From a virus (lineage: Duplodnaviria; Caudoviricetes), in IMG/VR virus record IMGVR_UViG_3300047469_000103, positions 1 to 64,000 of that record: a stretch of 64,000 nt of DNA; one strand, 5' to 3'. The translations under genes were made by a program, and so were the position numbers. Shown here one piece after another: positions 21,790 through 40,981 of this stretch (within the stretch, counting starts at the first letter, position 1; each line of letters begins with the position of its first letter). The notes under the pieces were generated by a model. The model was not told the origin of the DNA. It was given only the letters and a program-made list of their open reading frames with translations, and searched no databases.

Positions 21790-22287
21790 ATGGCAACTAA
21801 AGCGAAGGCATTAACAAGACGTGAAATCACGGAAAAACTTCACGAAGCTGTGATGTATTATTACGTGAAGAAAACGTACAGCGTTCACAGGGAAGTGGGC
21901 GTCGAGCGCTGGGGTAAGGCTCGTATTGACATGATGGCGCTGAGCCTGTCTTCGCAGATAATTGGTATCGAAGTTAAAAGCTGTTTGGCTGATTTCCGCG
22001 CCGATTCTAAATGGCGTAAATATCTGAGTCATTCGAACAAGTTTTATTTCATGTTCGCACCTTCCATCCTGAAGTCCCGCAAGTACGATGAAATCAAAGC
22101 GGAATTAAAGGAGGAAGGCGTGGGCATTCTGACACTGACAACCACGGGCCGGGTGCGCTGTGCGTTACGTGCGAAATCGCGTGAAGTGTCGGATACCAAA
22201 AAGTTTGACCTGTATAAGAAACTCGCTTGGCGTGGTGGTGACTCCAAGCGCAATATCAAAAAGACAAAGCGGGTATATTTGGAATGA
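21790..22287 (+). CDS. MmcB-like PD-(D/E)xK nuclease
   Basis: RIDMMAL...IEVKSCLADFRADSKWRKYLSHSNKFYF. Confidence 0.85.
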   Translation: MATKAKALTRREITEKLHEAVMYYYVKKTYSVHREVGVERWGKARIDMMALSLSSQIIGIEVKSCLADFRADSKWRKYLSHSNKFYFMFAPSILKSRKYDEIKAELKEEGVGILTLTTTGRVRCALRAKSREVSDTKKFDLYKKLAWRGGDSKRNIKKTKRVYLE

Positions 22288-22910
22288 CGGGGAAATTCAT
22301 TGTTCTTGAAAGTATCGAATGCGCCGGGAAGGGCACCGCTACAGATTACATGAAAGAGCATTTCACTCTAGCAAATGCAAAGGTGAAATACACACGGGAA
22401 ATCGGCGGTACGCCTTTCGCTGAGCGCATTCGCGAAATGATGCTGTCGTTAGACCCTGAATATGATTTGCCGCCAGCGTCGGATTTAATGATCGCGTATG
22501 GCGCACGAATTCAACACACAAAAAGCATGATTGTTCCGGCACTGGAAAGCGGCTACCACGTTTTCAGTGAACGCTACTACGCATCGACCTTGGCTTATCA
22601 AAGTCAGTACACGCCAGAAACTCAAGCGGTACACGATTTGATGATGCCGTATCTGCGCAAACCGAATATCACTCTGCTGTTGGATATCACGACAGAGACG
22701 ATGATGAAACGGATGTACGGAATTCGAAAAGCTTCTGGTATTGCACTCGACAAATTCGAAGTGAAATCTCAGGACTTTTTCGAAGGTGTGCGGAATGCCT
22801 ACCACAAACAAATTGACGATTCATGGGTAATCATTGACGCGGAGCGCAGCATTCCCGAAGTCAAAGAACAACTGTGTGCCGTCCTCAATAAATTTCTTGG
22901 GATTCCGTAA
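22284..22910 (+). CDS. tmk: Thymidylate kinase
   Basis: FIVLESIECAGKGT P-loop, TREIGGT, SERY..ST.AYQ, P..T.LLDI. Confidence 0.92.
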   Translation: MTGKFIVLESIECAGKGTATDYMKEHFTLANAKVKYTREIGGTPFAERIREMMLSLDPEYDLPPASDLMIAYGARIQHTKSMIVPALESGYHVFSERYYASTLAYQSQYTPETQAVHDLMMPYLRKPNITLLLDITTETMMKRMYGIRKASGIALDKFEVKSQDFFEGVRNAYHKQIDDSWVIIDAERSIPEVKEQLCAVLNKFLGIP

Positions 22911-23341
22911 TGAAAATCCAGATAGCCATTGCGAGCGCAGCACCGAAAAAGTTTGTACCGGCTGGCACGATTGTACGCCTGACAAAGAACCGCCCAACAT
23001 GGCGTGACCTTGGCCCGCGCCTGCTGAAAATTCCGATGCTGCAACGCGGTCATTTCGTTAGTGATTTGCCGGAAAACGATGATGGAATTATCGCCTACGC
23101 GCAGACCAATGCAATGACGCTGTTCTATGGCTATCGCATTCGTCTTGATGGCGAAAAAGATTTCATCGACAACCTGTTGATGTGCGTAGACGATAAAGGC
23201 CGCGTGGTAGAAGACGAAAAATATCGCCTGAATCATACGGCCTATTACGTCGGTGTGAAACTGCCAGACGCAGACATTAAATCACGGAAATATGCGAACA
23301 ACTTTGAACGCATGGATTACGTGTTACGGAATTTGGGGTGA
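22910..23341 (+). CDS. Hypothetical protein with MKIQIAIAS leader
   Basis: Coupled ORF; shared N-terminal leader. Confidence 0.7.
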   Translation: MKIQIAIASAAPKKFVPAGTIVRLTKNRPTWRDLGPRLLKIPMLQRGHFVSDLPENDDGIIAYAQTNAMTLFYGYRIRLDGEKDFIDNLLMCVDDKGRVVEDEKYRLNHTAYYVGVKLPDADIKSRKYANNFERMDYVLRNLG

Positions 23342-25017
23342 GTATGGAAATCAGTATTGCAGCCGCACCGGGGAGCGCTGACGCTCTGTTGAAACTTCTG
23401 ATCGCAATGTATCGCGCAGAGGATTTTAACTACGGTGAAAACTTCCTGAAGAAATTGCGTGCGTGGGAACCCGTCGCGCAACCGATGCTGGAACAGTTCG
23501 GCATTAAACGCGCATTCGCCCGTCCTATCGCCCTGCTGTTGGAAGGCGAAGACGTAAGCGATAACAAATACAATCACCTTGTCAAAGCGGCATTCGACAA
23601 GCTGAAAGAAAAGAAGAAAACATTCGAAAAAGATACCACGCTGAATAAAGTTCAACTCGGTATGTTCAACGATATTCGTCTGGCCTACAACGGATCGGAA
23701 AGCGCGGGCAAACGCCTGATGCAACACGCCGGTTACTTCAAAGACTCGCATATCTCGCAATTGTTTTTGCACGAAGGCGACGAAGTTGTAAGCGAAGTGC
23801 AGCAAGCGCTTTATGATCGACTGGGTGAACACGTTAAAACGCACGGCAAAGTAAAAGGCCACGTAATGCCTGACACTACGCTGACTGCGTGGCGTGACAA
23901 AGCAAAAGAAATCGGTTCGAATTTGCCGCAGCATCAAGAATATCTGGATATGCGCCGCCAACGGAAAGCCATTTACGACAAGGCAATTGCCAACATCGTT
24001 CGGGCGTCCGGCGAACACATTCTCGACGTGCAAGAAATCAAGCGTCAACTCGGTGATATTCAAAACGATATTCCAGATTGGTTTGTCGGCAAAATGGATG
24101 ACAAAGGGAACTTCTACACTGAAGCCGGTTTGCAGTTGCTGAATAAGCCGCTCGGTGAAGGCATGATGAACCCGAAATATAATCCTGCCGATGACAATTC
24201 CTACGTGTGTAAATACAAAGCACCGTTCGCGCAGAACTTCACCAGTGTGCAGACGATTGCCAACCGCACAGAAGGCCGCGTAGAAAGTTTTAGCATCATT
24301 CAAAACATGCTGCCGGACATTCAGAAATATGTGAAGAAATGGCTTCCTGATTTGGCGAAGGGGCCGGGTAGTTTGAAGGGCGCAGCCGCTGCTGTTTGCG
24401 AAGTGATTTATCAGACTTCCGCACGTATCGGTTCCACTCGGGCAAACACCGCTGGCGAAACCACTTACGGCATTTCTACACTGCTGCGCAAACACCTGAA
24501 TTTCAATGAACAACGCGTCATTATGAAATACATCGGGAAGAAAGGCGGCGCACAAAAGCACGTGATTAAATTCGAAGACCAGCGGACGATGATGCTGCAC
24601 TCTGCACTGGACGAATTCATTTACGAGAAAAAGCCAGCGGAATACGTGTTTACTTTCCGTGGTAAGCCATTGAGCAACAGCAATATCAACGGCTACCTGC
24701 GTGAACTCGGTTTCCCTGAAGGTTTCACCATTCACAAATTCCGCAAATTGCGCGGTACTGGAATGGCTAAGCTGCTGATGGACAAATGCCCTCACGGCCC
24801 GCGTGCAAAAGACGCAGTTGTTAACAAATGGATTGAAGACCAGTGCTTGAAAATCGGTAAAGAATTGGGCCACATGTCAGGCGAGAAAGTGACCGCAACC
24901 ACGGCCATCGCGAACTACATCGACCCATCGGTTTTCGCACCAGTTTTCGAGAAAACAAATACCCGTCCAAATAGCAAAATTCAGAAAGCTATGGACTTAG
25001 CTACGAAGGCGGAATAA
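23338..25017 (+). CDS. DNA topoisomerase IB (bacterial/poxvirus type)
   Basis: Catalytic pentad: SARIG (R), TYGISTLLRKH, YIGKKG (K), HKFRK (R), ELGH (H), ANYIDP (Y, nt 24916). Confidence 0.88.
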   Translation: MSMEISIAAAPGSADALLKLLIAMYRAEDFNYGENFLKKLRAWEPVAQPMLEQFGIKRAFARPIALLLEGEDVSDNKYNHLVKAAFDKLKEKKKTFEKDTTLNKVQLGMFNDIRLAYNGSESAGKRLMQHAGYFKDSHISQLFLHEGDEVVSEVQQALYDRLGEHVKTHGKVKGHVMPDTTLTAWRDKAKEIGSNLPQHQEYLDMRRQRKAIYDKAIANIVRASGEHILDVQEIKRQLGDIQNDIPDWFVGKMDDKGNFYTEAGLQLLNKPLGEGMMNPKYNPADDNSYVCKYKAPFAQNFTSVQTIANRTEGRVESFSIIQNMLPDIQKYVKKWLPDLAKGPGSLKGAAAAVCEVIYQTSARIGSTRANTAGETTYGISTLLRKHLNFNEQRVIMKYIGKKGGAQKHVIKFEDQRTMMLHSALDEFIYEKKPAEYVFTFRGKPLSNSNINGYLRELGFPEGFTIHKFRKLRGTGMAKLLMDKCPHGPRAKDAVVNKWIEDQCLKIGKELGHMSGEKVTATTAIANYIDPSVFAPVFEKTNTRPNSKIQKAMDLATKAE

Positions 25018-25020
25018 AAC

Positions 25021-25602
25021 ATGAAAGTAATGATTGCAGTTGCTTCGGAATATGTAGACGCACTTCCGAAGGGCGCCAAGATTAACAGCTTTGAAGTGTA
25101 CCGTTCCGGCACCAACAAAATGCTGGGCAAAGATAAAGCGGGCACGATGAAACAGATTGCAAAACGTCTGGATTACATACTGCCGGTTAACACGACTTTT
25201 GATTTGGTTGTGATTGCAGACCATGACGGCGCAACTCGCAAAGTCAAAGAATCCTACACGCTGAAATCTACCGGACTGGTTAAAGCACAAGTGGCAACAG
25301 CCGCCGCCAAACCTGCAAAGGTTAGCGCCAAAGTTGCACAGGTTATTACCTACGCAAAAAGCCAATATCCAATGAGTGGGCGCACGCCGACTTCGCTTTC
25401 GTTCACCAGTAAACAACGCGGTTTTATGGTCGAAGTTACCGACGCTGAAATCGTTGGTCGCGCATGGTACGAAGGCAACGACGACGCAATTAATCCCGAA
25501 TACAATATCAACGCCCCGACCGAACAAGGCTCGCTTGTGAAGCTTGCCAAATGGGTGAAATCCAGCAAGTCGGAAGCACCGCCATTCTCGGGGGCAAAAT
25601 GA
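25021..25602 (+). CDS. Hypothetical protein with MKVMIAVAS leader
   Basis: 193 aa ORF; shared leader. Confidence 0.7.
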   Translation: MKVMIAVASEYVDALPKGAKINSFEVYRSGTNKMLGKDKAGTMKQIAKRLDYILPVNTTFDLVVIADHDGATRKVKESYTLKSTGLVKAQVATAAAKPAKVSAKVAQVITYAKSQYPMSGRTPTSLSFTSKQRGFMVEVTDAEIVGRAWYEGNDDAINPEYNINAPTEQGSLVKLAKWVKSSKSEAPPFSGAK

Positions 25603-25775
25603 TTAAAGTATTCAACGTATCAGCGCTACACGAACGCTACGCCAACGAAACCGACGAAGAAAAAACCGCTCGTTATGCTGCGAATAAAAAGCGCATTACC
25701 GACATGGTTGAAGCGTGGGACAAGTTCGCGAAAGAGCATCCAGAAGCCGCTAAACAAATGAGGTGCGCAGCATAA
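25599..25775 (+). CDS. Small hypothetical protein
   Basis: Start re-assigned to ATG 25599 overlapping upstream stop. Confidence 0.55.
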   Translation: MIKVFNVSALHERYANETDEEKTARYAANKKRITDMVEAWDKFAKEHPEAAKQMRCAA

Positions 25776-26233
25776 TGGAAATCAAATTGATGACCGCAAC
25801 CGCCGCTGATTATCCAAGTCGTTACGCCCTCGGTTCGCTGGTGTATTTCCATCCCGGCATTCAGGGCATGACCGATGCTGAAGGTATCACGCACGGTTTG
25901 CTGGCGCGTATTGATCGCGTAAGTTTCGAGGAAGGTAAAGTAACCTACGACCTCGCAATGAACATTTCGAACAGCACAGAACTTCCACATTTTTACGACG
26001 CAATTCTGGTCGCAAGTGTGGACAGTATTTTCGTGGCTTCTTTTGACGATCTGGTTATGTGGACTGCGCAGCGTGCAAAAAGCGTAGAAGCATTAATCGG
26101 TGCAATTGAAGAACCGCAACTCGTAACGATGGCTACGGCATCCGGTGCGCTGACAATTGACGACGCCGAACGCATTACCCGTCGTTTTATCGCAATCGCC
26201 GCAGACGTGGCCGAACAGAAGGCAGCCGCGTAA
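25775..26233 (+). CDS. Hypothetical protein with MEIKLMTATA leader
   Basis: Start re-assigned to ATG 25775 (TAATG coupling). Confidence 0.7.
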   Translation: MEIKLMTATAADYPSRYALGSLVYFHPGIQGMTDAEGITHGLLARIDRVSFEEGKVTYDLAMNISNSTELPHFYDAILVASVDSIFVASFDDLVMWTAQRAKSVEALIGAIEEPQLVTMATASGALTIDDAERITRRFIAIAADVAEQKAAA

Positions 26234-27147
26234 TGGAACTGCAATTAGCCGTAGCAAAAGATTTCGGTAGTGTTTTTCACGGTACATCGTTTATCAACAT
26301 GGCCGCGATTATCAAGACCGACAAACTGCAACTGTCGCAAGTCGCCGGTAAAGAAGCAGAAGCCGCATTCGCAAAACATCCGTTCTTTTTGAGCGTGCGC
26401 CGTAACCGTGTGTTGACTGCGCAAAACTTCTACGACGTGACAATCGAATTCAAAGAACAATCCCTGCAATCGCGGATGAAACGTGAGTCAGTGGATTACT
26501 GGGGCCACGTCGAAGGCAAGGGTAACAGCATCGAACAGGAAGACCGCTATTACAGCGCTAAACCTGTGCTGCAAAAAGCCACAAAATTGATTCGTGCAAT
26601 TCACGTTGACCTGTCGAACTATGACGCCGAACGTCGCGGCAAAATGATGCGTGAAATGTTCGTGTCGGCAATGCGCCAAGGTGTGAAGGTTTATCTGTAC
26701 AAAGATAAGTCGGCATACGGCAATTTGAACGTGCGTAAAACCGTGCCGCTTTCTGATATGGAATACGGCGGTAAAGTGCAGAATCTTTTCCGCACGCGCA
26801 CCGCTGAAGAAGCCACGCAAGAAGGCGAAGACCAGATGTACAAGGGCATGCGTTATGCTCGCTCGGTTTACCCGGACATTAAATTCTTTGTCGATATTCT
26901 GTACGGCAATACTCCGCCAGTAAACGACAAAACGAAATACCTGCGTGAGCGTTATGGCTACCGCTACGGCGAACACGATTTGACTACGCAATTCCAGAAC
27001 GAATTGCATAACGCCTCGCACAGCCACGGCCCGAAAGATAAACAGTTGGCCGCTCGCCTGCAAACGTGGATGCGTGACAACAAAATGGATATCAAAGAAA
27101 CAGCTTATCGCGTGCGTGAAAACATTCGGAAAGCTGACGGGGAATAA
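26233..27147 (+). CDS. ADP-ribosyltransferase-like protein (paralogue 1)
   Basis: FHGT ... FFLSVRR ... DYW ... EQEDR spaced like ART H/R-S-E motifs. Confidence 0.6.
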   Translation: MELQLAVAKDFGSVFHGTSFINMAAIIKTDKLQLSQVAGKEAEAAFAKHPFFLSVRRNRVLTAQNFYDVTIEFKEQSLQSRMKRESVDYWGHVEGKGNSIEQEDRYYSAKPVLQKATKLIRAIHVDLSNYDAERRGKMMREMFVSAMRQGVKVYLYKDKSAYGNLNVRKTVPLSDMEYGGKVQNLFRTRTAEEATQEGEDQMYKGMRYARSVYPDIKFFVDILYGNTPPVNDKTKYLRERYGYRYGEHDLTTQFQNELHNASHSHGPKDKQLAARLQTWMRDNKMDIKETAYRVRENIRKADGE

Positions 27148-27148
27148 C

Positions 27149-28072
27149 ATGCAAATTCAACTGGCCCTTGCCGGATCGTCGGTTCTGTACCATTTGATCC
27201 CGATGGAATACGCGATCCCTGCACTGCAAAAAGATCGTTTTAAATTGGCTGCTACCAACGAAGGCGTAGAGTCTGAATTCGGTAAGCAGCAGTTCTTTCT
27301 GAGTCTGGCGCGTTCGAAACAAAGCCATTACTTCACGAATGAAATCAACGTGACCAGCGTTGTGTTCGTGTTGGACGGCGTAAAGATGGGCCAGAATTAC
27401 CAGATTAAACCAGTGGATTACTGGGCCAGTCAGCAGCACGTGACCAGCGATGAAATGGAAGACCGTTTGTTTGCCGACAAACTGTATATCCCTTGCGTGA
27501 AATACGTGAAGGAAATCCATTTCATGACTGAGCGCGAAGCCAAATGGAAATCGAACGATAGCCTGACGCTGGCGCTGCTTGCCAAACGGAATGGCATCGA
27601 GCTTTATCAATACGATGACATGAAAGACTTCGCGAAGCTGGATAAGCGCAAGAAAATCAAACTGGAAGTCAGCGATAAAAAGAAACCGAAATTCGGTGCG
27701 AAGAAAGGATTTAATCCCGGCCCCGATGGCGACCTGCAAGCGTGGTACGTTGCATCGCAAATCGTCTTCAAACCAAATGAGGATTTCGGTACGCAATTCG
27801 TTAAAGGCGCAAAGCATAAAGAAGAGCGCAAAGCCCGTGACCGTATTCGTCGGCAGATTAACCAACTGAATCGCACGTGGGAAGTCGGCAGCCAAGCGGT
27901 ACGGGATTTCAATCGTCTGCTAGGTTATGCAAAAGACGGCGAAGACCTTCAATTCCTTGAGAAAATTAAACGTGTAAAACGCAAACAGCGCGTCGATACC
28001 AAAGGCTTTCTGGATTATGTTCGGAAGCGTTGGATGACTGCTGAAGACCGCGTGAATCACGGACTGGAGTAA
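27149..28072 (+). CDS. ADP-ribosyltransferase-like protein (paralogue 2)
   Basis: LYH ... FFLSLAR ... VVFVLDG ... PVDYW ... EMEDR; start re-assigned to ATG 27149. Confidence 0.6.
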   Translation: MQIQLALAGSSVLYHLIPMEYAIPALQKDRFKLAATNEGVESEFGKQQFFLSLARSKQSHYFTNEINVTSVVFVLDGVKMGQNYQIKPVDYWASQQHVTSDEMEDRLFADKLYIPCVKYVKEIHFMTEREAKWKSNDSLTLALLAKRNGIELYQYDDMKDFAKLDKRKKIKLEVSDKKKPKFGAKKGFNPGPDGDLQAWYVASQIVFKPNEDFGTQFVKGAKHKEERKARDRIRRQINQLNRTWEVGSQAVRDFNRLLGYAKDGEDLQFLEKIKRVKRKQRVDTKGFLDYVRKRWMTAEDRVNHGLE

Positions 28073-28074
28073 CC

Positions 28075-29976
28075 ATGAGAATTCAGATAGCCCTTGCGTC
28101 GGTGCCGCTTAGCATTGCACGAAAGTATGTAAAAAACTGGAACAAAAATGGCATCGGTGTAAAGGCTGTCCGCCAGTTCATGAAGCCGCCGAAGAAAGGG
28201 TATCGGTTTTACATTCCGATCAAGCCTAAAAAATCTGCAAAAATTGTACCGCCGTCGAATATCGTCAGCACCTTGGATTCCCTCGGTTATAAAATTGATG
28301 ATTACGTGAGCGGTATTGCAGTTGACCGCACAGGCAATCGTCGCATGCGGATTGGTAAACTTCTCAAGGATGATTCGCTGCGTCAGGAATTCGCAAACGA
28401 TCCACAACGCAGTGCGCACAAAGACGAATATGTCTGCGTGCTTTCTTCACATCCTTATGACGTAATCGGTATGTCTACCGGGCGCCGTTGGGATATGACT
28501 TCCTGTATGCGTCTGGATCAACCGGGCAAAACACAGGGCGGTGTGTACAAAGAAAAAGTTGCAAAAGACGTGGCGGAAGGGACAATTGTTGCCTACGCCA
28601 TTTCGCCAAAAGACACGAACATCGCAAACCCACATGCACGGCTTTTAATTAAACCGTTTTACAAAACCACTGGCGGGAACCGGACGCAGAATAGAAAAGT
28701 TGTTCTATTCCGTGTTGAAACGAAAGTCTACGGCACACCAATTCCCGGCTTTATGGAAACCGTGAGCGCGTGGCTACGCAAGGTCAACAGCAAGGCCGAG
28801 GCGGGTGTTTATACGATTGCGCCTGAGCTTTATGACGACGGCGTTGGTCAGCTTGCAATTCACGCGGACTTTAACAAGACGCCCGATGATGAAAGGTTTA
28901 AATACCTGAATGAAAACCGGGAACAAATCCCCCTAATTGTTAAATCCGATATACGTTGGTTGGGTGTTGCCTTCCAGCATATGTCGCAACTGTATTACAA
29001 CGCGAATAACCCCGGCACTCAGGCAGCGAACCTGCTAGACCTGATGAACAAAGTTAAAACGCTGGGTTCAACGGTTAAAGAAATTGGACAACAAGTCGAG
29101 AAATTCTTACCGGACGCCGATCTTCCGTGGCTTGCTAAAATGCTGCCTCAAGATGCCATGCAGCCTATTGCTGATTATTCTGCGCGCCTGACAAAAGCCA
29201 CTGACGCGGAATACGCATACGATCCAGAATCCCCACTTATGTCGTCGTCAGAAATCCTGACAAAACGTGCGTACTGGGATGCTCGCTGGTTGGCGAAAAT
29301 GGATGATCTTACGGATGAATACGCGGCAGGAAATACATTCCTTTCGTTCATTCGCAGTCGCCTAACGGACACACCGGAATTCCGAAAGTCTAAAGCTCCC
29401 GGCTCAATTAAAATGCGTGAATATCTCGGTATGATGTTCCGCATTGCTGCCAAGTCTTCGAACGACGAAGAGACTGGCGTGAAACTGTCGCGCAAACTGG
29501 CGCCACGATTCAAGGTTGATACCTATTTCAATCCGACAATTGAAAAATTGATGGGGCGCATTTGGGAACATCGAATGAAACGTGCTACCGGTCGTGCTGA
29601 TGGGGAAACCGCCTCCGGTCTGTTGTGCGCTGTAGACAGAACGTGGCCTGCACAAAACGTTGAATTAATTGCAGACAGTGGCAATGTAGTTCTGCGCCAA
29701 GAAGTATTCGAAGACCTGCTGAAAATCAATACCGAATATGCAAACTGGGAAATCGCCACACGTATTCGCGAAGAACTCGCCGCATCGAACCTAACGCAGA
29801 CCTCGTGGAATATGCGCTACCCGTGGATGCTGCCGTTTATTAAATCGGTTGCTCGTGGCCCATACCCGCCGCGCTTGATGCAGTGGGCGCAGGACTTTAT
29901 CGCCCATATTGAAAAAGTCTCAAAAGAAATGGATGACATTTTCAAAGAACTCGGCCTCGACGAAGACGGAAATTAA
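28075..29976 (+). CDS. Large protein, HPYD/SCMRL family paralogue 1
   Basis: SHPYDVIGMSTGRRWDMTSCMRL, DVAEGTIVAYAI; MRIQIALAS leader. Confidence 0.8.
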   Translation: MRIQIALASVPLSIARKYVKNWNKNGIGVKAVRQFMKPPKKGYRFYIPIKPKKSAKIVPPSNIVSTLDSLGYKIDDYVSGIAVDRTGNRRMRIGKLLKDDSLRQEFANDPQRSAHKDEYVCVLSSHPYDVIGMSTGRRWDMTSCMRLDQPGKTQGGVYKEKVAKDVAEGTIVAYAISPKDTNIANPHARLLIKPFYKTTGGNRTQNRKVVLFRVETKVYGTPIPGFMETVSAWLRKVNSKAEAGVYTIAPELYDDGVGQLAIHADFNKTPDDERFKYLNENREQIPLIVKSDIRWLGVAFQHMSQLYYNANNPGTQAANLLDLMNKVKTLGSTVKEIGQQVEKFLPDADLPWLAKMLPQDAMQPIADYSARLTKATDAEYAYDPESPLMSSSEILTKRAYWDARWLAKMDDLTDEYAAGNTFLSFIRSRLTDTPEFRKSKAPGSIKMREYLGMMFRIAAKSSNDEETGVKLSRKLAPRFKVDTYFNPTIEKLMGRIWEHRMKRATGRADGETASGLLCAVDRTWPAQNVELIADSGNVVLRQEVFEDLLKINTEYANWEIATRIREELAASNLTQTSWNMRYPWMLPFIKSVARGPYPPRLMQWAQDFIAHIEKVSKEMDDIFKELGLDEDGN

Positions 29977-29978
29977 TC

Positions 29979-30221
29979 ATGCAAATTGAATTGGCTACAG
30001 CAGCGGCCACGACTGTCAAAGCGTCCGACGTAAAAGACACCGTGAAGTTGATCGAAGCTGCAATTAAAAAACAACGAATGTTTCTCGTGCAAAGCGGTGG
30101 CGAACAAAACCCGCAAGTCGTGACCGAACGTCTGCGTGTGCAGGAACGTGTTGATATGTTGGAAGCGATTCTGGATTCCATGAAAGGTAAACACATTGCC
30201 TTGAGGATTTACGCTCAATGA
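29979..30221 (+). CDS. Small helical protein with MQIELATAA leader
   Basis: 80 aa coupled ORF. Confidence 0.7.
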   Translation: MQIELATAAATTVKASDVKDTVKLIEAAIKKQRMFLVQSGGEQNPQVVTERLRVQERVDMLEAILDSMKGKHIALRIYAQ

Positions 30222-33019
30222 ATATTGAAATGGCAGTCGCCGCCGTCTCGATGAAAACGGCACTGAAATATCGCCGTGACTGGAATAAAAACAGTCCGGC
30301 TGTAAAAGCTTTGCAAAAGATGCTGCCTGTTGGCCCCGGCAAGAAAGGTTATCGCCTGTACATTCCAATCGGCGCACAGATTAAACATCGTTTTATCATT
30401 CCGCCAGCCGTGCGTTTCGCGCTGAAGAAGAATGGCTTTGTTGCCACCGATTACCTCGCAAAGAAATGTGTTAAGCTTGACGACAAAGACCAGAAGAACG
30501 TATTTAACATCGGCAAAGTAATTGCCAAAGATGTTCATGCGAAAATGGCTTTCGACAACGACCCGCAATTGCAGAACACCGCTAGCGGCGCGCATTTACA
30601 AGTGGTTATTTCCTGCCACCCTTACGATATTATCGGCATGTCCACCGGGCGTTCGTGGGATAAACAATCCTGCATGCGTCTCGACGATGGCGTGGTAAAC
30701 CGTGGGGATAAAGGCGCATACAGTCGCCACGTGAAAAACGACGTAGCTGAAGGGACATTGGTTGCGTATGCAATTGATCCAAACGACACGAATATTAACA
30801 AGCCGAAATGCCGCTGCCTGATTAAACCTTTCGTGAATAGCGAAGGTGAGGTTTTGTATCGTCGTGAATCGGATGTTTACGGCAACCCGGTTCCCGGTTT
30901 TAATTCGACGGTGAACGCATTTCTACGCAAGCTAAATGCTGATGCGGAATCCGGCCATTACGAAATGAGCGGCGATCTTTACGACGACGGCGCTGGTACG
31001 GATCACCATCACGTAAAAAGTGATAGCAACCGCATCACAAACGACGACGTAGGCGACGATCATTCGTTGGCTGTTGATTTCGTTAAGCAGGAAATGGAAA
31101 TCATCAAAGCTGGTGAAGAGGACGAAACAACGAACCTCGGAAATATCAGCGGCGCACGAAACAACGCGAATAATATCGCACATATGCTGAATGATTTAAC
31201 CAGTAACGAAATGACTGTTCAACTGGATGAAATTGCCGACCTCGTGCGCGGTAGTGAATTCATTGGGCAGTATGTGAACGATCTTGTTCTACATGGGAAA
31301 AAGATTAACTCTGCGTTGGCCTACGTGGCACGCAAAGCCGGTCTGCTGGACAAGCGTAAAGAAATAAACTTTCCAGAAACAATGGATGTGAAACTGGCAA
31401 TTACGCAAGCGCGTTCCGGCAACCCTGCTGCAATGGAAGTCGTGCTGCGTAATCTGGACGACGAAGAAAACCCCGGCGATCATCACGCACAAATTCTCGC
31501 AGACCTGATGTACGGCGTGTTGCCAGTTCCTGAAAAGGAAATGTTGGATAAATACCCGTTTGCTCGTTCGTTTATCCACACGACCGCTTCGGCTGCGCGC
31601 TTCCTGAATCTGTTTAGCTACGAACGTTTCCACGAAGCGGCTTTCGCCCTTCTGGAAATCACCGAAGGCTCGGAAAAAATGCGTGGCGATTATGTCATGT
31701 ACACGCTGCGTGAAGTGCAAGGTTTGGAATTGGTTCTGTGCTATCTGTTGGATAACGTAGGATTTCTTTCGGCGGATGAATGGTTCCTGTTCCGCACTAA
31801 CGAAATGGCTGAGCATTTGATTGGCCGACGCAACTTCCGCGCTTTCGATAAGCTAACAGATAATCAAGCGCAGATGTTTATGGAACACATTAAAATCGAC
31901 ATGATGCGCCTCATTGTCACACAGCCGTATCGAGCCGACGCATTCAAAGACAACTTCCCTGCAATTCGCGCGTTCTTTCTGGAACATCCAGAAAACATTA
32001 ACAGCATTATCGAGGGCCGTGGCACGCAACAATGGGATATTGCGTGTGTCACAAACCTGATTAAATTCTCGGTGCCGATGTTCCTGCAATTGAACGGTGA
32101 AGGTTCTGCGTTCAATGCTTCGATGGTCACTGCGATGATGAATGCAATCGCCCCGTATTTGCTGGATTACAACGGCGCAGACAAGATCGGTGACGACGAC
32201 AAAACCGAAGTCGCCAGTACGCAAATGGAATTCATTATGCAGGCGTTGCAAGTCGCCGGTAAAATGCTGGATAAACCTGTTGATTTCACAAAGCATATTG
32301 ATTTCGAACCGGTTGATCTGAAAGCTGTGTCTGCCAAGTTTAAAAACCTTGCAGGCGGCGACCGCAACGGTGCCTATATGACTTTCTCCGGTGTGTTGTC
32401 CGGTCTGGAAATCAACGGGCAGTCGATCAACATTGCACAAGAAATGGAATTGATTGTCGCGGAAGCGCCAGCCTCGTTCTATGCAATGCCGCGTGAAACA
32501 CTGGCAAACCATCACCGGACGATCATTAAAGAACTCGCTAAAATGTCGTCGATGGATACGCTTCTGAAATCCGCAGAAAACATTCTCGATAATACGGAAA
32601 TGGTTGAAACGGAAGACGAAGACAGCTACGTCAACGATAACAGCGACATGGGTGATGCTTACCCGGACGATGACGACTACGACGAACTGTTGGAAGCAGC
32701 ACAAGATAAAGCCCGCGATAAAGTCGAACGTTTGAATCAAGCAACAGTGGAAACAAACACGAAATGTTTGCGTGCTTTGGAAATGCTGCAAATGCTTATC
32801 GGTGAAGACGAAGAGGAAGATGAAGACGACGAAGACGAAGACGAAGATGGTGAAGTGAAATCGAAGCCGCTTGAATTCGGTTATCAGACTCCACAATTCA
32901 CCCCGGAAATCTTTGAAGAATATTCGTCTGATATCCTTGAACTGCGTGAGCGGATTAAAGAAGCATTGGCACAACGCTCGGAAGAAGCGGAAGAATACCG
33001 TGACGCTGCCGGGTATTAA
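30218..33019 (+). CDS. Large protein, HPYD/SCMRL family paralogue 2, acidic C-terminus
   Basis: CHPYDIIGMSTGRSWDKQSCMRL, DVAEGTLVAYAI; MNIEMAVAA leader. Confidence 0.8.
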   Translation: MNIEMAVAAVSMKTALKYRRDWNKNSPAVKALQKMLPVGPGKKGYRLYIPIGAQIKHRFIIPPAVRFALKKNGFVATDYLAKKCVKLDDKDQKNVFNIGKVIAKDVHAKMAFDNDPQLQNTASGAHLQVVISCHPYDIIGMSTGRSWDKQSCMRLDDGVVNRGDKGAYSRHVKNDVAEGTLVAYAIDPNDTNINKPKCRCLIKPFVNSEGEVLYRRESDVYGNPVPGFNSTVNAFLRKLNADAESGHYEMSGDLYDDGAGTDHHHVKSDSNRITNDDVGDDHSLAVDFVKQEMEIIKAGEEDETTNLGNISGARNNANNIAHMLNDLTSNEMTVQLDEIADLVRGSEFIGQYVNDLVLHGKKINSALAYVARKAGLLDKRKEINFPETMDVKLAITQARSGNPAAMEVVLRNLDDEENPGDHHAQILADLMYGVLPVPEKEMLDKYPFARSFIHTTASAARFLNLFSYERFHEAAFALLEITEGSEKMRGDYVMYTLREVQGLELVLCYLLDNVGFLSADEWFLFRTNEMAEHLIGRRNFRAFDKLTDNQAQMFMEHIKIDMMRLIVTQPYRADAFKDNFPAIRAFFLEHPENINSIIEGRGTQQWDIACVTNLIKFSVPMFLQLNGEGSAFNASMVTAMMNAIAPYLLDYNGADKIGDDDKTEVASTQMEFIMQALQVAGKMLDKPVDFTKHIDFEPVDLKAVSAKFKNLAGGDRNGAYMTFSGVLSGLEINGQSINIAQEMELIVAEAPASFYAMPRETLANHHRTIIKELAKMSSMDTLLKSAENILDNTEMVETEDEDSYVNDNSDMGDAYPDDDDYDELLEAAQDKARDKVERLNQATVETNTKCLRALEMLQMLIGEDEEEDEDDEDEDEDGEVKSKPLEFGYQTPQFTPEIFEEYSSDILELRERIKEALAQRSEEAEEYRDAAGY

Positions 33020-33023
33020 TAAG

Positions 33024-33039
33024 TAATTTAAAGGTATGA
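33024..33039 (+). promoter_or_regulatory. Motif A TAATTTAAAGGTATGA
   Basis: Identical 16-mer to 18864 copy, intergenic. Confidence 0.6.
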
Positions 33040-33041
33040 CT

Positions 33042-33072
33042 AAGCCGGGTGCTGTTTGCCCGGCTTTCTTTT
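33042..33072 (+). terminator. Intrinsic terminator-like hairpin
   Basis: AAGCCGGG-tgctgtttg-CCCGGCTT plus TCTTTT. Confidence 0.7.
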
Positions 33073-33093
33073 GCCGAATTATGGATAATTATT

Positions 33094-35808
33094 ATGATTC
33101 CTGTGCAGGTTTCCGAAGAGTTTGGGTTTTTGGGCGTTGCAGCGGTATCCCTCCGCTCGACTTTGAAATACCGCCGTAACTGGAATAAAAATGGGCCGAC
33201 CGTTAAACTGCTGCGCAAATTAATGCCGCGTGGTTCGAAAGGTTATCGCGTTTATATGCCAATCGGTGTCAGCCAGAATATGCGCAACGTGATTGTTCCG
33301 TTGCCGGTTCGTTTGGCTGTGAAACAAGCAGGCTTTCGGATTACCGATTACCTCGCCAAGAAGTGCGTAAAAATCTCCGATAAAGAACAGAAAAACGAAT
33401 TCAATATCGGTAAGGTTATCGCGAAAGACCCGGTTGCAAAGGCCGCTTTCGACAATGATCCACAATTGCAAAACAGTTCCACTGCCGAATTCCAATTGGT
33501 TGTTTCGTGCCACCCTTACGACATTATCGGTATGAGTACCGGTCGTAGTTGGGACAACGAAAGCTGCATGCGTCTGCGTGACTACCGACCTGATTCAAAT
33601 GATGGTTCGAATAATCATTATTTGGAAGTCGATATTGCAGAAGGCACATTGGTTGCTTATGCCATTCGTGCGTCTGATACCAACATCGAAAAACCGCTGG
33701 GCCGCTGCCTGTTGAAACCGTTCGTGAGTGAAACCGGCGGTGACGATATTCTGTATCGCCGTGAAACAAAGATTTACGGCAATCCGGTTCCGGGTATGCC
33801 AGAAACACTTAACCGTTTTCTGCGCAAATTAAACGCGGATATTCCAGCGGGCCAATACAAGTTGCACAAAGGTTTGTATAACGACGGCATTCAATACCGT
33901 CACAATCGTGAAGAGTCGGAAGGCGAACGCGATACCGACCAGATTGACTGGACTGTTGTTGACGACGAAGCAACGCTGAAAGAAAAGCCGCATTTGTTTG
34001 CATCGTTGGTCGCTCATTTCCTGAAGAACTACAAAGCCGGTTTGACTGACATTCGTCATTTCATTTCCGTGCTGTTTCACGCATCGAATATGGTGCCTGC
34101 TAAATATCTGCGCCAAGCTGCACGACTGCTTTGCACTGACGATATTGCAAAAGGTTTTATGCAGTTTGTTACTGAAGGCGACGAAGACCAGAACACCATT
34201 CTGGCTGGTTACTATTTGCGTAACCCGGAATTCCGCCGCCTGTGTGCGCAGCATATTCCAGAAGGCGTGGACGCTGCCTATTCCCGCGTGCTGAGTTTCG
34301 TTAGTCCGAAATTCGATGCTGCAATTCTGAAAGGTATTCCAAACAATGTGGATGCTCACATTCTTTCGGCGTATCAAATTCTGACTGGCATGATGCAACT
34401 GAGTCCGAAGAGCATTGAATCGCGACCAGACCTGCACCGAATTATTTATCTGTTCGCCCGTCTGGCCCGTGACGCTTCGATTTTCGATATGCGTGCGTAT
34501 CAGGAACCAGCGCATCAAATTCTGGCAACATCTACTGTCAACAAAGAAGAAATTCCGTTGGTAGAAGTTGTTAAAGTTGCCGAGTTTTTGGTCGGTGAAC
34601 CTGACACGATGCTGATGGCCGCAACGTGGATGCTGGAATACATGAAGACCGGCGATTTTAAACGCGCCGAAGTCGTTGCCGCGTATATCTCTCCGCACGG
34701 TTTTGAAGACCTGTTGAAAGAACGGAAATTGCGTCGTCGTTTCTTGGGCGGTAAAGGCATTCCAGAAAGCACAATGAAACAAATCAACATTGCTGTTTGT
34801 GCATTGCTGGATAATAACCAAGACGAAGACACGGCAACCACTCGTGATTTGCTCGCGCACATTGCGAAGACGCCATTCAACGCCGTTAACGTCAGTTCCT
34901 ATAACCGTTTGGTAAATGCTCACCCTGAGACTTTCCCGAATGTTTACTACACTGATGCCAACACGATGGATCGTTACACAATTAACGAAATGGTTTACTA
35001 CGTGCCGTCGTATGAAGTCAGTATTAACATTCGTGATGGCGAGCCACTTCCGGCACCGGTAAACGAATGGCAAGCGCGCACGTGGGAAATTGCAGGCACG
35101 TTAATGCACGTTAGCGCCCTCGCGACAAAGAGCGCACAGGAAGCTTTGCCTGTGTCGGAAACCGTGATGGAAATTCTTGAAAAAGAAGGCGGCGATATTC
35201 CACAACTGGCGCGTATGGAAATCGACATTAAAAAGCATCCGCGACTGTTCAACGGAAACACGGTCAAGTACATGATGCCGTTTGATTTTATCGGCAACGA
35301 TAACGGCGAAGCATTCATGGAACGCAGCACACGCGGCGACATTGATAACTTTGTAAAAATCATGGAAACCGTTTTCGAGAACGCCGGTAAAATGGGCATT
35401 TACATGCCGTACACCGACCCGAACTATACCCGCGTGCCTAGCGACGTGATGTTTATTACGGTGGTTAGTAATGTTGCTAAAAACGAAACCCCGGACAAGG
35501 CACAAGCGCTGTTGAATTCGTGCCTTAAATACATTCGAACATATCAGGCGTTTATCGACACACTGCCAGCCATCGGCCCCGGCTTTGTAGATCGTTGGGT
35601 TGAAAAACTCTCGATGTATTCTGCAAAAGAAGTGAACGATTGGAGTATCCACATTGCAGGCTTCCAAAAGAAAATGTTGGACGATCCTAAAACGCTGATT
35701 GCCGGTATCAAACTGCTGACGTATATGTGCAGTATGAAAGGCGGGAATAAAGGATGGCAACTCGACATTTCCGATGTGCCTGCTGATTGGCAAATGAACG
35801 ACGACTAA
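33094..35808 (+). CDS. Large protein, HPYD/SCMRL family paralogue 3
   Basis: CHPYDIIGMSTGRSWDNESCMRL, DIAEGTLVAYAI; start re-assigned to ATG 33094. Confidence 0.8.
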   Translation: MIPVQVSEEFGFLGVAAVSLRSTLKYRRNWNKNGPTVKLLRKLMPRGSKGYRVYMPIGVSQNMRNVIVPLPVRLAVKQAGFRITDYLAKKCVKISDKEQKNEFNIGKVIAKDPVAKAAFDNDPQLQNSSTAEFQLVVSCHPYDIIGMSTGRSWDNESCMRLRDYRPDSNDGSNNHYLEVDIAEGTLVAYAIRASDTNIEKPLGRCLLKPFVSETGGDDILYRRETKIYGNPVPGMPETLNRFLRKLNADIPAGQYKLHKGLYNDGIQYRHNREESEGERDTDQIDWTVVDDEATLKEKPHLFASLVAHFLKNYKAGLTDIRHFISVLFHASNMVPAKYLRQAARLLCTDDIAKGFMQFVTEGDEDQNTILAGYYLRNPEFRRLCAQHIPEGVDAAYSRVLSFVSPKFDAAILKGIPNNVDAHILSAYQILTGMMQLSPKSIESRPDLHRIIYLFARLARDASIFDMRAYQEPAHQILATSTVNKEEIPLVEVVKVAEFLVGEPDTMLMAATWMLEYMKTGDFKRAEVVAAYISPHGFEDLLKERKLRRRFLGGKGIPESTMKQINIAVCALLDNNQDEDTATTRDLLAHIAKTPFNAVNVSSYNRLVNAHPETFPNVYYTDANTMDRYTINEMVYYVPSYEVSINIRDGEPLPAPVNEWQARTWEIAGTLMHVSALATKSAQEALPVSETVMEILEKEGGDIPQLARMEIDIKKHPRLFNGNTVKYMMPFDFIGNDNGEAFMERSTRGDIDNFVKIMETVFENAGKMGIYMPYTDPNYTRVPSDVMFITVVSNVAKNETPDKAQALLNSCLKYIRTYQAFIDTLPAIGPGFVDRWVEKLSMYSAKEVNDWSIHIAGFQKKMLDDPKTLIAGIKLLTYMCSMKGGNKGWQLDISDVPADWQMNDD

Positions 35809-35821
35809 TCGGTGACAATAA

Positions 35822-36046
35822 GTGAAAATAATTCTGTCGTTGGCTAAATCGGGAAGTCCCGACCGTTGGGACGCCTTGCCCTATATCAGTTTCGACAACG
35901 CGAAAGAAGGCAAGCGCCTGACAGCTAAAGGCAAAAAAGGTAAAAAGAAAGGGCGTAAAAAGAAAGCTGATGGCCTTCTCGATACGCCCCTTAAAGGTGC
36001 GGAAACCGTTATCTCAAACGTACCCGACCGCGTTAGATTTTCTTGA
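35822..36046 (+). CDS. Small Lys-rich protein with MKIILSLAKS leader
   Basis: GTG start; KGKKGKKKGRKKK tract. Confidence 0.6.
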   Translation: MKIILSLAKSGSPDRWDALPYISFDNAKEGKRLTAKGKKGKKKGRKKKADGLLDTPLKGAETVISNVPDRVRFS

Positions 36047-36053
36047 GGTTCAC

Positions 36054-36314
36054 ATGGCAAAACTGTCGATTAATCTACAGGGCAGAGCGGCACGTGGAAC
36101 AGACAGCACGGAACACGGCGGCACGCGCCTTTCCACATGGGAAGACGACGATAAACTGGCCGGGAACCTGCCGAAATCCAAAGTGAAAACTTTGCTCAAA
36201 AACCAGAAGAACGTACAAAACCAAAGCGCTGTTATGCCTCACGATTACGTGGACAAAATGCACATTTCGAAATCGAATTGGCTGAGTCGGCATGAACAGA
36301 GTACGCCGCGATGA
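36054..36314 (+). CDS. Small hypothetical protein
   Basis: Start re-assigned to ATG 36054 after GAGG. Confidence 0.65.
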   Translation: MAKLSINLQGRAARGTDSTEHGGTRLSTWEDDDKLAGNLPKSKVKTLLKNQKNVQNQSAVMPHDYVDKMHISKSNWLSRHEQSTPR

Positions 36315-36973
36315 AAATACGAATTAACCTTGATGTGTTCAAGGACTTACCGACTGACGTGCGCAAGCTTAGCAATTCGCAAGGTGCTGAATTCGGTGAC
36401 GTATTGGCCGACCTTGCAAAGCGTGGTTTACATCGCCACGGAAAAGCTCGCGACCATTTTGAAGTGGAAGAAGACGAACGCGATGCCGCTGTTTATCCAG
36501 ACGATGGATTTAATGGTGACGCATTCGACGTTGTGTATTCACGCCGCGACGAAGAACAATCAACGGCCTGCAATTTCTGCTTGTCGATTGCAGGTTTTGA
36601 AAAGCCACGCGTAAAAGGAATTGGTGAAGACGGTTTCCGCGCAATTCTCAATGAAGAGCGCGCACGCCGGGGCTTAGAGGCATTTGCTGCTGATAAAGTA
36701 CCGCCACCATCGAAAGCCGAACACGCAAAACACCGGGCGAAAGTGGACAACAGCGCACAGATTAAAAAAGCTCAAGATAACAAGATGAAAAAGCAGGCCA
36801 GTCTTCAGGCTATGCAGACGCGTCTTCGCAAAATGAGCAAGCGTCCAACCAATCCCGAACAAGCGAAAGTGTGGGCGGATCGCCGTCAAGCTTTGATGGA
36901 TAAAATCAAGGAACAACGCGACTCTATTCGGTTCACTGATTCGCGCATTGCGAAAATGAGGTCAACCGAATGA
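36311..36973 (+). CDS. Hypothetical protein with basic coiled-coil C-terminus
   Basis: 220 aa coupled ORF; MKIRINL start. Confidence 0.7.
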   Translation: MKIRINLDVFKDLPTDVRKLSNSQGAEFGDVLADLAKRGLHRHGKARDHFEVEEDERDAAVYPDDGFNGDAFDVVYSRRDEEQSTACNFCLSIAGFEKPRVKGIGEDGFRAILNEERARRGLEAFAADKVPPPSKAEHAKHRAKVDNSAQIKKAQDNKMKKQASLQAMQTRLRKMSKRPTNPEQAKVWADRRQALMDKIKEQRDSIRFTDSRIAKMRSTE

Positions 36974-37350
36974 ATATTGCTATCAGGATTTCGCCGTCGG
37001 GTTTGGAATACAGCACGTTGTCGAACCTTGGCAATATGCTGAAAGAATTCATGCCCGATTGGGACGTGACGTATGCGTCGTGCATGGTGCCTTACGAATT
37101 GCGTAGTTTCTTTTTGGAAGGCCGCACATTTGTACGCGCCACGTACACAATGAAAAAGTACGACAAAGCGCTTTTCATTCACGTGGATTTCAAGACTCCA
37201 ATTGAAATCTATATCATTCATCAAATAGGTTTGGAAAATATTGCTCGGCGCGTCTACACCATTGATCGCTCCGACAGCCTTGCGTTGTTCCGCATAATTA
37301 CTTCCGAACTGGAGAACACTATCAATGGCGACTTCAAGAACATCGAGTAA
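36970..37350 (+). CDS. Hypothetical protein
   Basis: 126 aa coupled ORF; MNIAIRIS start. Confidence 0.65.
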   Translation: MNIAIRISPSGLEYSTLSNLGNMLKEFMPDWDVTYASCMVPYELRSFFLEGRTFVRATYTMKKYDKALFIHVDFKTPIEIYIIHQIGLENIARRVYTIDRSDSLALFRIITSELENTINGDFKNIE

Positions 37351-40533: not shown

Positions 40534-40981
40534 GTTCAACCTCACGCGAACCTACGAAAATAATCGAATTCTTGAATGCAACATCGTCCGTGCGCAACGC
40601 CCGATACAGGAAAGCGTCCGTGTAGATTTGACAGCCGCAAATGTCGCCCAAATCCCCGTGTAATACTTTCTGGTAATTGGTAATCGGGTTGAGGTGTTCC
40701 ATCAATGCAGGATTGCCGATAATGTCGGCCCATGCACTATCGCGCAGCAGCATATATTTTGTGTTTTTACACAGATGCAAAAACTGCTCTACGTCGTCGT
40801 GAATGATGTTTTCACCGACCGGGATACCAATCAACAAAGCGTCGTCTTTACGCTTCATGAATTCGTTTGCAGCAATTTGCTCTGCGTCGGTGTCGATGGG
40901 AACGGAACGGCGCAGTTCTTCCGCCTGTCGATTCAAACGCATGTTGCGACCGGCGATTGTTTCTTCTGTTGTTTGATCCAT
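40526..40981 (-). CDS. Protein resembling a major capsid protein fragment
   Basis: DSAWADIIGNP...LNPITNYQKVLHGDLGDICGCQIYTDAFL. Confidence 0.65.
   Translation of the reverse strand: MDQTTEETIAGRNMRLNRQAEELRRSVPIDTDAEQIAANEFMKRKDDALLIGIPVGENIIHDDVEQFLHLCKNTKYMLLRDSAWADIIGNPALMEHLNPITNYQKVLHGDLGDICGCQIYTDAFLYRALRTDDVAFKNSIIFVGSREVEHV

Follow-up and report, generated by a model that had tools for sequence, protein, structure and literature searches.

An eight-residue N-terminal leader on unrelated proteins of a Lu11-like jumbo phage: a probable capsid-targeting propeptide

The present analysis concerns a stretch of viral DNA of 64,000 nucleotides (IMG/VR record IMGVR_UViG_3300047469_000103, positions 1 to 64,000; the window in what follows), which originates from a jumbo phage related to the Pseudomonas phages Lu11 and HRDY3. 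Ten plus-strand genes of this window, located between positions 22910 and 36046, open with a common leader of the form M-x-[IVL]-x-[ILM]-[AS]-x-A, one of them (25775) in a variant form. The leader is a real and modular tag, which is conserved as a peptide, lies outside the fold of the proteins that bear it, is specific to the phage lineage, and is interchangeable with T4-type leaders on the same domains. Probably, though not certainly, it serves as a propeptide that targets proteins to the capsid, belongs to a new sequence class and has A-x-A as its cleavage end, and would thereby mark a cassette of head-internal proteins.

The leader and its conservation

An earlier note on this DNA had described a leader shared by consecutive genes and conserved at the protein level, and both statements are borne out. 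All candidate starts in the six frames with at least 40 codons were scanned with the pattern ^M.[IVL].[ILM][AS].A, which matched 9 of the 2659 starts in the window; all nine are true gene starts within 22910–35822. The chance of a match is 4.9e-4 per start, with 0.034 matches expected among the 70 genes (Poisson P ~2e-19). The pattern was picked after the data had been seen, and it is replicated in the relatives. The whole leader comprises eight residues, polar at positions 2 and 4, and its positions 3 and 5 (I/L) are conserved as strongly as the A-x-A. The leaders of the window end in A-x-A, with no Glu at positions 8–10, and the conservation stops past residue 8–9. The codons for Leu (CTG/CTA/CTC/TTA), Ala (GCN), and Val (GTN) differ from gene to gene across the leaders. 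Such free variation of the synonymous codons places the selection, and thus the conservation, at the level of the peptide.

The tagged proteins had also been regarded as unrelated, which holds for about eight families but not within two groups of paralogues. A BLAST comparison among the cassette proteins links 28075, 30218, and 33094 through a common N-terminal domain (N-domain) of ~270–300 amino acids (aa), and 26233 and 27149 through ~170 aa in common (E 7.5e-10). No similarity beyond these two groups was detected in this comparison, and the tag is therefore borne by approximately eight independent families. Apart from the type IB topoisomerase (TopIB), none of the cassette proteins gave a match in Pfam or PHROG, even with the E limit relaxed to 1.

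One flavour of the tag per genome

A scan of the relatives had been proposed along with that of the window, and the motif recurs in Lu11 and HRDY3. In the 280 kb of Lu11, the DNA pattern for MKIx[L]AxA matches 8 times, always at gene starts within 156.3–169.4 kb, and the reversed-pattern control gives 0 matches. MKIQLAVA-like starts are present on thirteen cassette genes of Lu11, and MEMMLALA-like leaders on 12–13 genes of the syntenic block of HRDY3. A scan of IMG/VR for the exact MKIQLAVA coding pattern returned Lu11 itself only. Dickeya phage JA11 and Erwinia phage Yoloswag, which belong to other genera, have gene clusters starting with M-x-[IVL]-x-[VIF]-S-[LI]-S. The leaders of phage PaBG are degenerate (MKVSFSLK, MHTSLSAV, MELAIASD), and no such cluster of genes with A-x-A or S-x-S (AxA/SxS) leaders was found in phage RsoM2USA.

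The differences in flavour between the genomes fall at leader positions 2–5, upstream of the presumed cut. A flavour common to non-homologous genes within one genome and differing between genomes suggests, as far as can be read from the sequences, a single partner that all the tagged proteins share and that co-evolves with their tag.

Two further tagged genes, common to Lu11 and HRDY3, are located outside the cassette. The first is a 120-aa gene positioned directly upstream of the scaffold-like/gp81-like/capsid module, with the leader MKVYLAIA in Lu11 and MEMMIALA in HRDY3; the gene upstream of the scaffold-like gene is also tagged in ten metagenomic relatives. The other encodes a protein with the KMPT-N domain (the KTSC/metallopeptidase N-terminal fusion domain). 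In Lu11_0077 (L071:15428-16705, minus strand), the Pfam domain KMPT-N follows directly after the leader MIISLAAA, and the gene adjoins that of a DNA ligase. KTSC and SprT-like proteins are encoded in the window at 13103–14068 and 20467–21789, and the SprT-like gp89 of PaBG starts with MELAIASD.

Predicted structures

In the AlphaFold2 model of the 27149 protein, the mean predicted local confidence (pLDDT) is 83, residues 1–7 score below 50, and the first strand spans residues 12–18. The model of the N-domain of 28075 (pLDDT 89, predicted template-modelling score 0.83) also places residues 1–7 below 50. The fold begins at residue 12 in these models, and the leader, with residues 1–7 outside the fold, is thus predicted to be an add-on rather than the first strand of the domain.

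The best Foldseek matches of 27149 are Tpt1, DarT, and CC0527, all of them weak (E 5e-3 to 3e-2; template-modelling scores of 0.4–0.57, normalised to the hit). They are consistent with an ADP-ribosyltransferase (ART) fold of 26233 and 27149 and echo T4 Alt, so that the ART-like label proposed earlier is weakly suggested by the predicted fold (Tpt1/DarT, E 5e-3). The invariant residues of the ART-fold family are H15, S52, R55, E102, E104, D105, and R106. For the N-domain of the large paralogues, Foldseek against the PDB gave no match below E 0.1, and a search of the AlphaFold DB returned uncharacterised proteins only. Its weak matches, in VIA-align (HAT1, Z 6.1; NAT9, Z 5.5) and in Foldseek at E above 0.1, are mostly GNAT proteins, all below the level that the program regards as meaningful; the GNAT-like label of the earlier note is thus at best a tentative one. 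These searches yielded no clear relative of known function for the N-domain. The cassette proteins other than TopIB, the ART-fold pair, and the large paralogues are orphans.

Exchange of leaders and virion-borne homologues

Homologues of the cassette proteins in other phages bear on the role of the leader. The N-domain of the large paralogues has 115 homologues, 111 of which were anchored on a conserved motif. An AxA/SxS leader of eight residues is carried by 70 of the 111, and a T4-type phi-x-E leader by 24, e.g., MRYKEFAIE↓AL, MKTFKQFLNTLME↓AL, and MQYTDLIE↓AL (the arrow marks the leader end, or the presumed cut). The other 17 mostly show the extended form of the third large paralogue of the window. 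In 111/111, the leader ends directly before the conserved A-[VL].

The same behavior is observed in the ART-fold family, whose profile search gave 2569 representatives. Among the 181 inspected, 62 have phi-x-E leaders (e.g., MKTFKQHLIE↓G, MRISDFLTE↓A), 54 AxA/SxS leaders, 39 other leaders, 2 leaders of the phi-phi-A type, and 1 none; the domain is internal to larger proteins in 23. In this family, the ..S-x-[IV]-L-Y-H strand follows immediately upon the leader. The search also recovers the 26233 subfamily, with the leaders MKMFVSLA, MEFEIALS, and MQVEIALA. Judged by these alignments, the tag is modular, and the same junction in two cargo families takes either an AxA/SxS or a T4-type leader. 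As a separate observation, several ART-fold representatives (P0234, P0246, P0269, P0274, P0319, and others) have leaders ending in phi-phi-A↓G-L-S, such as MKVLA↓G, MSIKAVILA↓G, and MKKKLINVLRQVVA↓G, which may represent a fourth class of tag and protease.

T4-type leaders also occur in groups. At least seven genes of RsoM2USA have a MKTFKQFL.E-like start. On a metagenomic contig (L072; Joint Genome Institute, 23 kb), three adjacent genes start with MRYKEFAIE or MRYREFAVE, and a nearby 569-aa gene starting with MRYYEF is located between two ClpP-like genes; the contig looks like a T4-type tag cassette of an uncultured phage. Both RsoM2USA and Atu_ph07 encode the gp21-type S77 protease (PF03420), which the genomes of Lu11, JA11, and PaBG lack.

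The two T4-tagged homologues that were checked are both known from virions. In purified virions of RsoM2USA, liquid chromatography with tandem mass spectrometry identified ORF132 (76.64 kDa) and ORF89 (28.57 kDa) among ten abundant bands (PMC8504454). ORF132 is a homologue of the large paralogues of the window with a T4-type leader, and ORF89 starts with MKTFKQFLSE. The Atu_ph07 protein gp394 (1455 bp, 55.10 kDa) was detected in virions by 18 unique peptides with 41% coverage (PMC6102473, Table S5); this protein (AUZ95153) is also a homologue of the large paralogues and bears a T4-type leader. At least the N-domain cargo family is therefore virion-borne when T4-tagged.

The leader end in scaffold-like and capsid proteins

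The motif at the leader end recurs in the head proteins, which were counted in the relatives (Lu11, HRDY3, PaBG, JA11, and ten metagenomic contigs). The scaffold-like protein (PaBG gp82, Lu11_0067) adjoins the capsid gene and has an acidic centre, as scaffolds have; Pfam gave matches to the acidic stretch only. In Lu11, it contains 17 A-x-A-[SAGT] sites vs. 1.41 expected, which is the first rank among 340 open reading frames (ORFs; p 2.6e-13), and 0 of 2000 shuffles reach this count. The PaBG protein has 14 such sites vs. 1.08 expected, and the N-terminal part of the HRDY3 protein 10 vs. 0.59. The ten metagenomic relatives have 17–19 sites in the scaffold-like protein, which is the only enriched ORF of those loci. 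The JA11 protein contains 10 S-x-S-[SAGT] sites vs. 1.29 expected, the first of 320 ORFs, and only one A-x-A. As regards the gene itself, that of HRDY3 is apparently split (L048:6749-7714) into a 322-aa ORF and a C-terminal part, which may reflect a frameshift or a sequencing error; in the metagenomic relatives the gene is a single ORF of 642–658 aa.

Corresponding motifs are found at residues 66–78 of the capsid proteins: V-A-T-A↓SS in Lu11, I-A-T-A↓SS in HRDY3, V-S-E-S↓H in JA11, and A-V-A↓A in PaBG. A cut at this position would remove 18–21% of the mass, and the capsid protein of PaBG is reported to lose ~20% on maturation (PMC7412058). The motif in the scaffold-like and capsid proteins changes together with the type of the tag, and not with the tail genes. 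Since the same A-x-A or S-x-S is present in the leader end, the scaffold-like protein, and the capsid protein, the leader end looks like the site of a lineage-specific head protease. The cleavage after A-x-A suggested in the earlier note fits these data of the relatives. A scan for internal leader-like sites with a position-specific scoring matrix gave a mild signal only. Another protein with such sites is a 75-aa protein of the window (50043–50270), which has two A-T-A-S (0.10 expected), the top score of the window. Its Lu11 counterpart (182131–182355) ranks third in the Lu11 proteome, and the protein may be a further protease substrate or a regulator.

Proposed role and alternative explanations

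In the proposed mechanism, the leader M-x-phi-x-phi-A-phi-A would be a procapsid-targeting propeptide, the counterpart in function, within the Lu11 lineage, of the T4 capsid targeting sequence. The tag bearer would be recruited to the core of the assembling head, probably via the scaffold-like protein, and the shell would close around this core. The head maturation protease would then cut after A-x-A (S-x-S in the JA11/Yoloswag lineage), removing the tag and chopping the scaffold. The mature proteins, i.e., TopIB, the two ART-fold, three large multidomain, and several small ones, would stay in the head with the DNA and would possibly be ejected into the host. Such tag-driven loading would make the 13-kb block a cassette of head-internal proteins. 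The packaging of the A-x-A proteins, the cleavage at A8, the receptor of the tag, the protease, and the ejection into the host are inferred.

Several observations weigh against this reading. Some genes of the cassette have no tag, and the orthologue Lu11_0203 has lost it. The cassette sits among genes of DNA metabolism (dTMP kinase, MmcB-like, SprT-like), and TopIB might be nothing more than an enzyme of replication. No prohead protease of the S77, S78, or ClpP type was found in Lu11, JA11, HRDY3, and PaBG, and the proposed cleavage specificity is therefore derived only from counts of the motif. In three leaders of the window, K or P follows the presumed cut, and a protease preferring S, A, or G may not accept these residues there. 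The 14 gel bands of PaBG include neither TopIB nor clear homologues of the cassette proteins, and the uncharacterised PaBG virion proteins gp83, gp191, gp202, gp261, and gp263 show no shared leader. These bands, the only proteome of an AxA/SxS-type phage, neither support nor contradict the role of the leader as a tag.

The leader might instead be a pro-peptide removed by a protease, which governs inactivity or timing and has no sorting role, the proteins being cytoplasmic and unpackaged. The A-x-A end, hugely enriched as a motif in the scaffold-like protein, speaks for recognition by a protease and not necessarily for targeting, and within the T4 tag the determinants of targeting can be told apart from those of processing. 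However, head proteases act inside closed proheads, so the substrate must already be inside, and virions do contain homologues that bear T4-type leaders. Moreover, positions 3 and 5 are conserved like the A-x-A, and the flavours differ at positions 2–5, upstream of the presumed cut, which leaves the pro-peptide an unlikely explanation. A docking strand, attaching the proteins to the tail 'hairs' or the outside of the capsid rather than to the head interior, is still less likely. The 'hairy Myoviridae' morphology is common to Lu11, the JA phages, and Y3 (PMC6143709), the alternating hydrophobic and small residues suit strand addition to the edge of a beta-sheet, and the virion proteomics of the homologues is silent on the position within the virion. 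Yet an external position would be hard to explain for TopIB and ART-fold enzymes, the tag can be exchanged for that of T4, which targets the prohead core, and the motif follows the scaffold-like and capsid proteins and not the tail genes.

Signals acting on the protein itself fare worse. The recognition motifs of ClpX-type machines at N-termini are short and partly hydrophobic, as would be expected if the leader were a degron or a peptide for a chaperone or AAA+ unfoldase that controls stability, timing, or localisation. A further point in its favour is that AAA+ proteins of the Clp or BCS1 type, which are encoded by some jumbo phages, have been suggested to transfer proteins into the head (PMC7824862). 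Nevertheless, no ClpP homologue was found in Lu11, JA11, HRDY3, and PaBG, and a degron would account neither for the exchange with T4-type tags, nor for the presence of the homologues in virions, nor for the A-x-A enrichment of the scaffold-like protein, which makes it improbable. A Sec or lipoprotein signal peptide was rejected, in agreement with the earlier note, as the leader has eight residues, no h-region, and no Cys, and the cargo is made up of enzymes of the DNA and NAD type. Finally, the leader might be no signal at all, and result from paralogy, a common first beta-strand, or a nucleotide-level preference in initiation. Two paralogue groups do exist, M-K-I starts are common, and AAA as the second codon favours initiation. 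This explanation was discarded and has almost no probability left, as the approximately eight families have no detectable similarity past residue 9, the synonymous sites vary, residues 1–7 lie outside the fold, homologous domains of other phages bear quite different leaders, and only 0.03 matches are expected.

Genes of the cassette

The block 22910–37350 is packed gene to gene, and all the genes described here are on the plus strand. It begins with a 143-aa protein (22910..23341; leader MKIQIAIA↓S), a pattern match that has no Pfam or PHROG family; its orthologues start with MKLYLTTA (Lu11_0196), MEMMLALA (HRDY3), and MKVSFSLK (PaBG gp86). The following gene, 23344..25017 (557 aa, leader MEISIAAA↓P), securely encodes a type IB topoisomerase by its sequence, as labelled earlier. 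Its residues 337–482 match PF01028 Topoisom_I with E 2.7e-12 and 47 bits, above the cut-off of 23.7, and it belongs to phrog_23460; the D. radiodurans TopIB 2f4q is matched weakly (E 0.009), and the N-terminal ~330 aa are without assigned function. The leader (e.g., MLISIAAS, MQISLAAA) is present in nearly all of the 23 TopIB orthologues, P0160 (MSGNFDALL...) being without it. In three metagenomic relatives of TopIB (P0153, P0155, P0159), a small GNAT-like gene precedes the TopIB gene in the same reading frame and is fused to it; these fusions have a leader at their own start and an internal relic of the TopIB leader (..MKLNVSIAAS↓PGSADA).

Next comes a 193-aa protein (25021..25602; leader MKVMIAVA↓S, pattern match), with orthologues starting with MKIMLATA (Lu11_0198) and MEMMLAVA (HRDY3). 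The small 58-aa gene 25599..25775 has no leader (MIKVFNVS...), and its orthologues Lu11_0201 and that of HRDY3 start with MIKPIR; this untagged gene inside the cassette means that not all cassette genes are tagged. The 152-aa protein at 25775..26233 carries the variant leader MEIKLMTATA↓A, a loose match to the pattern; its HRDY3 orthologue starts with MKTEIAIA, and Lu11_0203 is leaderless, with a stop codon just upstream. The putative ART-fold pair consists of 26233..27147 (304 aa, leader MELQLAVA↓K) and its paralogue 27149..28072 (307 aa, leader MQIQLALA↓GSSVLYH), the latter examined by AlphaFold2 and Foldseek as described above. The 26233 protein has 67% identity to Lu11_0200, which starts with MKIQLALA.

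The first large paralogue, 28075..29976 (633 aa), has the leader MRIQIALA↓SV followed by the N-domain (K-x-W-N-K ... S-x-HPYD). An 80-aa protein (29979..30221; leader MQIELATA↓A), a pattern match with no similarity to the other cassette proteins, separates it from the second, 30218..33019 (933 aa, leader MNIEMAVA↓AV), which has the shared N-domain and a different C-terminal part; the orthologues of the latter start with MKIQLATA (Lu11_0208) and MNFELAVA (HRDY3). The third, 33094..35808 (904 aa), shows 59% identity to 30218 over the N-domain and has an extended degenerate leader, MIPVQVSEEFGFLGVA↓AV, a type also present in its relatives (MLLELDGFSEDILGTA↓AV). Between the second and third large paralogues, a strong 10-bp hairpin with a T-run is located at 33042–33066, after TAATTTAA at 33024. 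The start of the third paralogue is more likely 33094 than the GTG at 33049, because the latter lies inside this hairpin. The word TAATTTAA, a putative late promoter, is not above chance in number (5 seen vs. 3.2 expected), and no enrichment of sigma-70-like and terminator-like sites was found.

The last tagged gene, 35822..36046, has a GTG start and encodes a 74-aa basic protein (leader MKIILSLA↓K, pattern match); its orthologues start with MNILLTVA (Lu11_0211) and MEVLISLA (HRDY3). The three genes downstream, 36054–36314 (MAKLSINL), 36311–36973 (MKIRINL), and 36970–37350 (MNIAIRIS), had been counted as looser members of the set together with MEISIAH at 12296. All four lack A6-x-A8, the leader is inconsistent in their orthologues, and they are doubtful members of the set; the orthologues of the three downstream genes start with MKLTIKGR, MKIMLAVA (Lu11_0213, leader present), MTEIIIDG, and MEIELKFP.

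Genomic context

The TopIB of the window has 72% protein identity to those of Lu11 and HRDY3 and 41% to that of PaBG, and the nucleotide similarity between the window and the relatives is almost nil. Upstream of the cassette, the plus strand encodes the large terminase (9390–12296), the portal (14675–16603), fibre-like proteins, a SprT-like protein, a MmcB-like protein, and the dTMP kinase (22284–22910), which the block directly follows. A minus-strand block including dihydrofolate reductase comes after 37350. The SprT/Spartan-like metalloprotease, the MmcB-like nuclease, and TopIB are clustered within 20467–25017, an arrangement that suggests the repair of TopIB-DNA crosslinks. A short stretch at 40610–40756 on the minus strand resembles part of the capsid protein of PaBG (residues 202–308; 49 aa aligned at 43% identity, E 2e-8). 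Two similar stretches are present in Lu11 at 77.5–78.2 kb, and in both the window and Lu11 they are distant from the true capsid gene.

Implications

As a tentative generalization, for which we would not claim even chances, tailed phages would use a limited number of interchangeable, lineage-specific N-terminal 'zip codes' of 6–15 residues, each ending in the motif of the head protease of that lineage, and the lineages of Lu11, PaBG, and JA would hide a new kind of prohead protease with cleavage after Ala or Ser. The end motifs may be phi-x-E, A-x-A, S-x-S, and perhaps phi-phi-A↓G. The hidden protease, assemblin-like in cutting after Ala/Ser, may be part of the 630-aa scaffold-like protein. 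If such zip codes exist, the packaged and ejected proteome could be read straight from the genome, and one result would be a type IB topoisomerase that travels in the virion, as that of poxviruses does.

No description of an A-x-A tag was found in the literature searched. If the leader has the proposed role, it would be a second class of capsid-targeting tag, unrelated in sequence and outside the T4 family, and would suggest that a head protease has escaped recognition. Among the proteins of Lu11-like phages, about a dozen, including TopIB and the two ART-fold enzymes, would then be candidate first-strike effectors. The leader would also offer a minimal handle of eight residues for loading foreign proteins into the heads of Pseudomonas jumbo phages, as the T4 tag does. 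The comparative rule is general: a cargo domain swaps its tags by lineage, and the tag type matches the cleavage motif of the scaffold and capsid of that lineage. It is applicable to any phage genome for the prediction of the proteins that accompany the DNA.

Comparison with known systems

Polyvalent and MuF-type phage proteins are described as large and multidomain, with variable enzymatic C-terminal parts, and are thought to travel with the DNA (Iyer et al. 2017, as cited in PMC7824862). The three large paralogues of the window resemble them in combining one N-domain with unrelated C-termini. They differ in that no MuF or other Pfam domain was found in them, and the proposed signal is an eight-residue leader instead of a portal-associated MuF domain.

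In encapsulins, a short peptide of alternating small and hydrophobic residues loads unrelated enzymes into a shell of the HK97 fold. Unlike the tag of the window, which is N-terminal and has a probable protease site at its end, these peptides are mostly found at the C-terminus, attach to the shell protein itself, and stay uncleaved. The herpesvirus assemblin cuts its maturation sites at [VLI]-x-A↓S, and this capsid protease also digests the scaffold. The presumed phi-A-x-A↓S/A/G resembles such Ala↓Ser sites, which is a likeness of the motif only; the herpesvirus site is not used as a cargo tag, and no assemblin-like protease was identified here.

The phiKZ-like phages SPN3US and 201phi2-1 are also jumbo phages that package many proteins with their DNA. 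Their N-terminal propeptides were inferred to target the prohead, and the motif of the protease recurs in several head proteins (PMC5694885). These propeptides differ from the leader in that they mostly have 80–130 residues and share no 8-mer; a homologue of gp21 cleaves them at A/S/G-x-E, and this protease family is missing from the Lu11 lineage.

The closest parallel is phage T4, in which the tag MKTYQEFIAE (10 residues) is sufficient to package foreign proteins. It ends in I-A-E, and the gp22 scaffold is fragmented by the same protease, gp21, whose cuts in gp22 fall at L/I-x-E sites. The earlier analogy with this capsid-targeting sequence does not extend to the sequence or to the protease. 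The M-x-I-x-L-A-x-A of the window is unrelated to MKTYQEFIAE and has Ala/Ser instead of Glu before the presumed cut; the relatives encode no S77 (gp21-type) protease; and the cassette, known here from sequences, is much larger (10–13 genes) and includes TopIB. The analogy stands in the modular nature of the leader, its place outside the fold, and its use of the junction that T4-type leaders occupy. As in the window, IPI, IPII, IPIII, and Alt of T4 are otherwise unrelated proteins of variable loci with a short N-terminal propeptide (7–20 aa), and the cargo includes an enzyme of the ADP-ribosyltransferase type, likewise suggested here by the weakly supported ART fold. In both systems, the tag ends in the motif that also riddles the scaffold, and both types of tag are found at the same junction in two cargo families.

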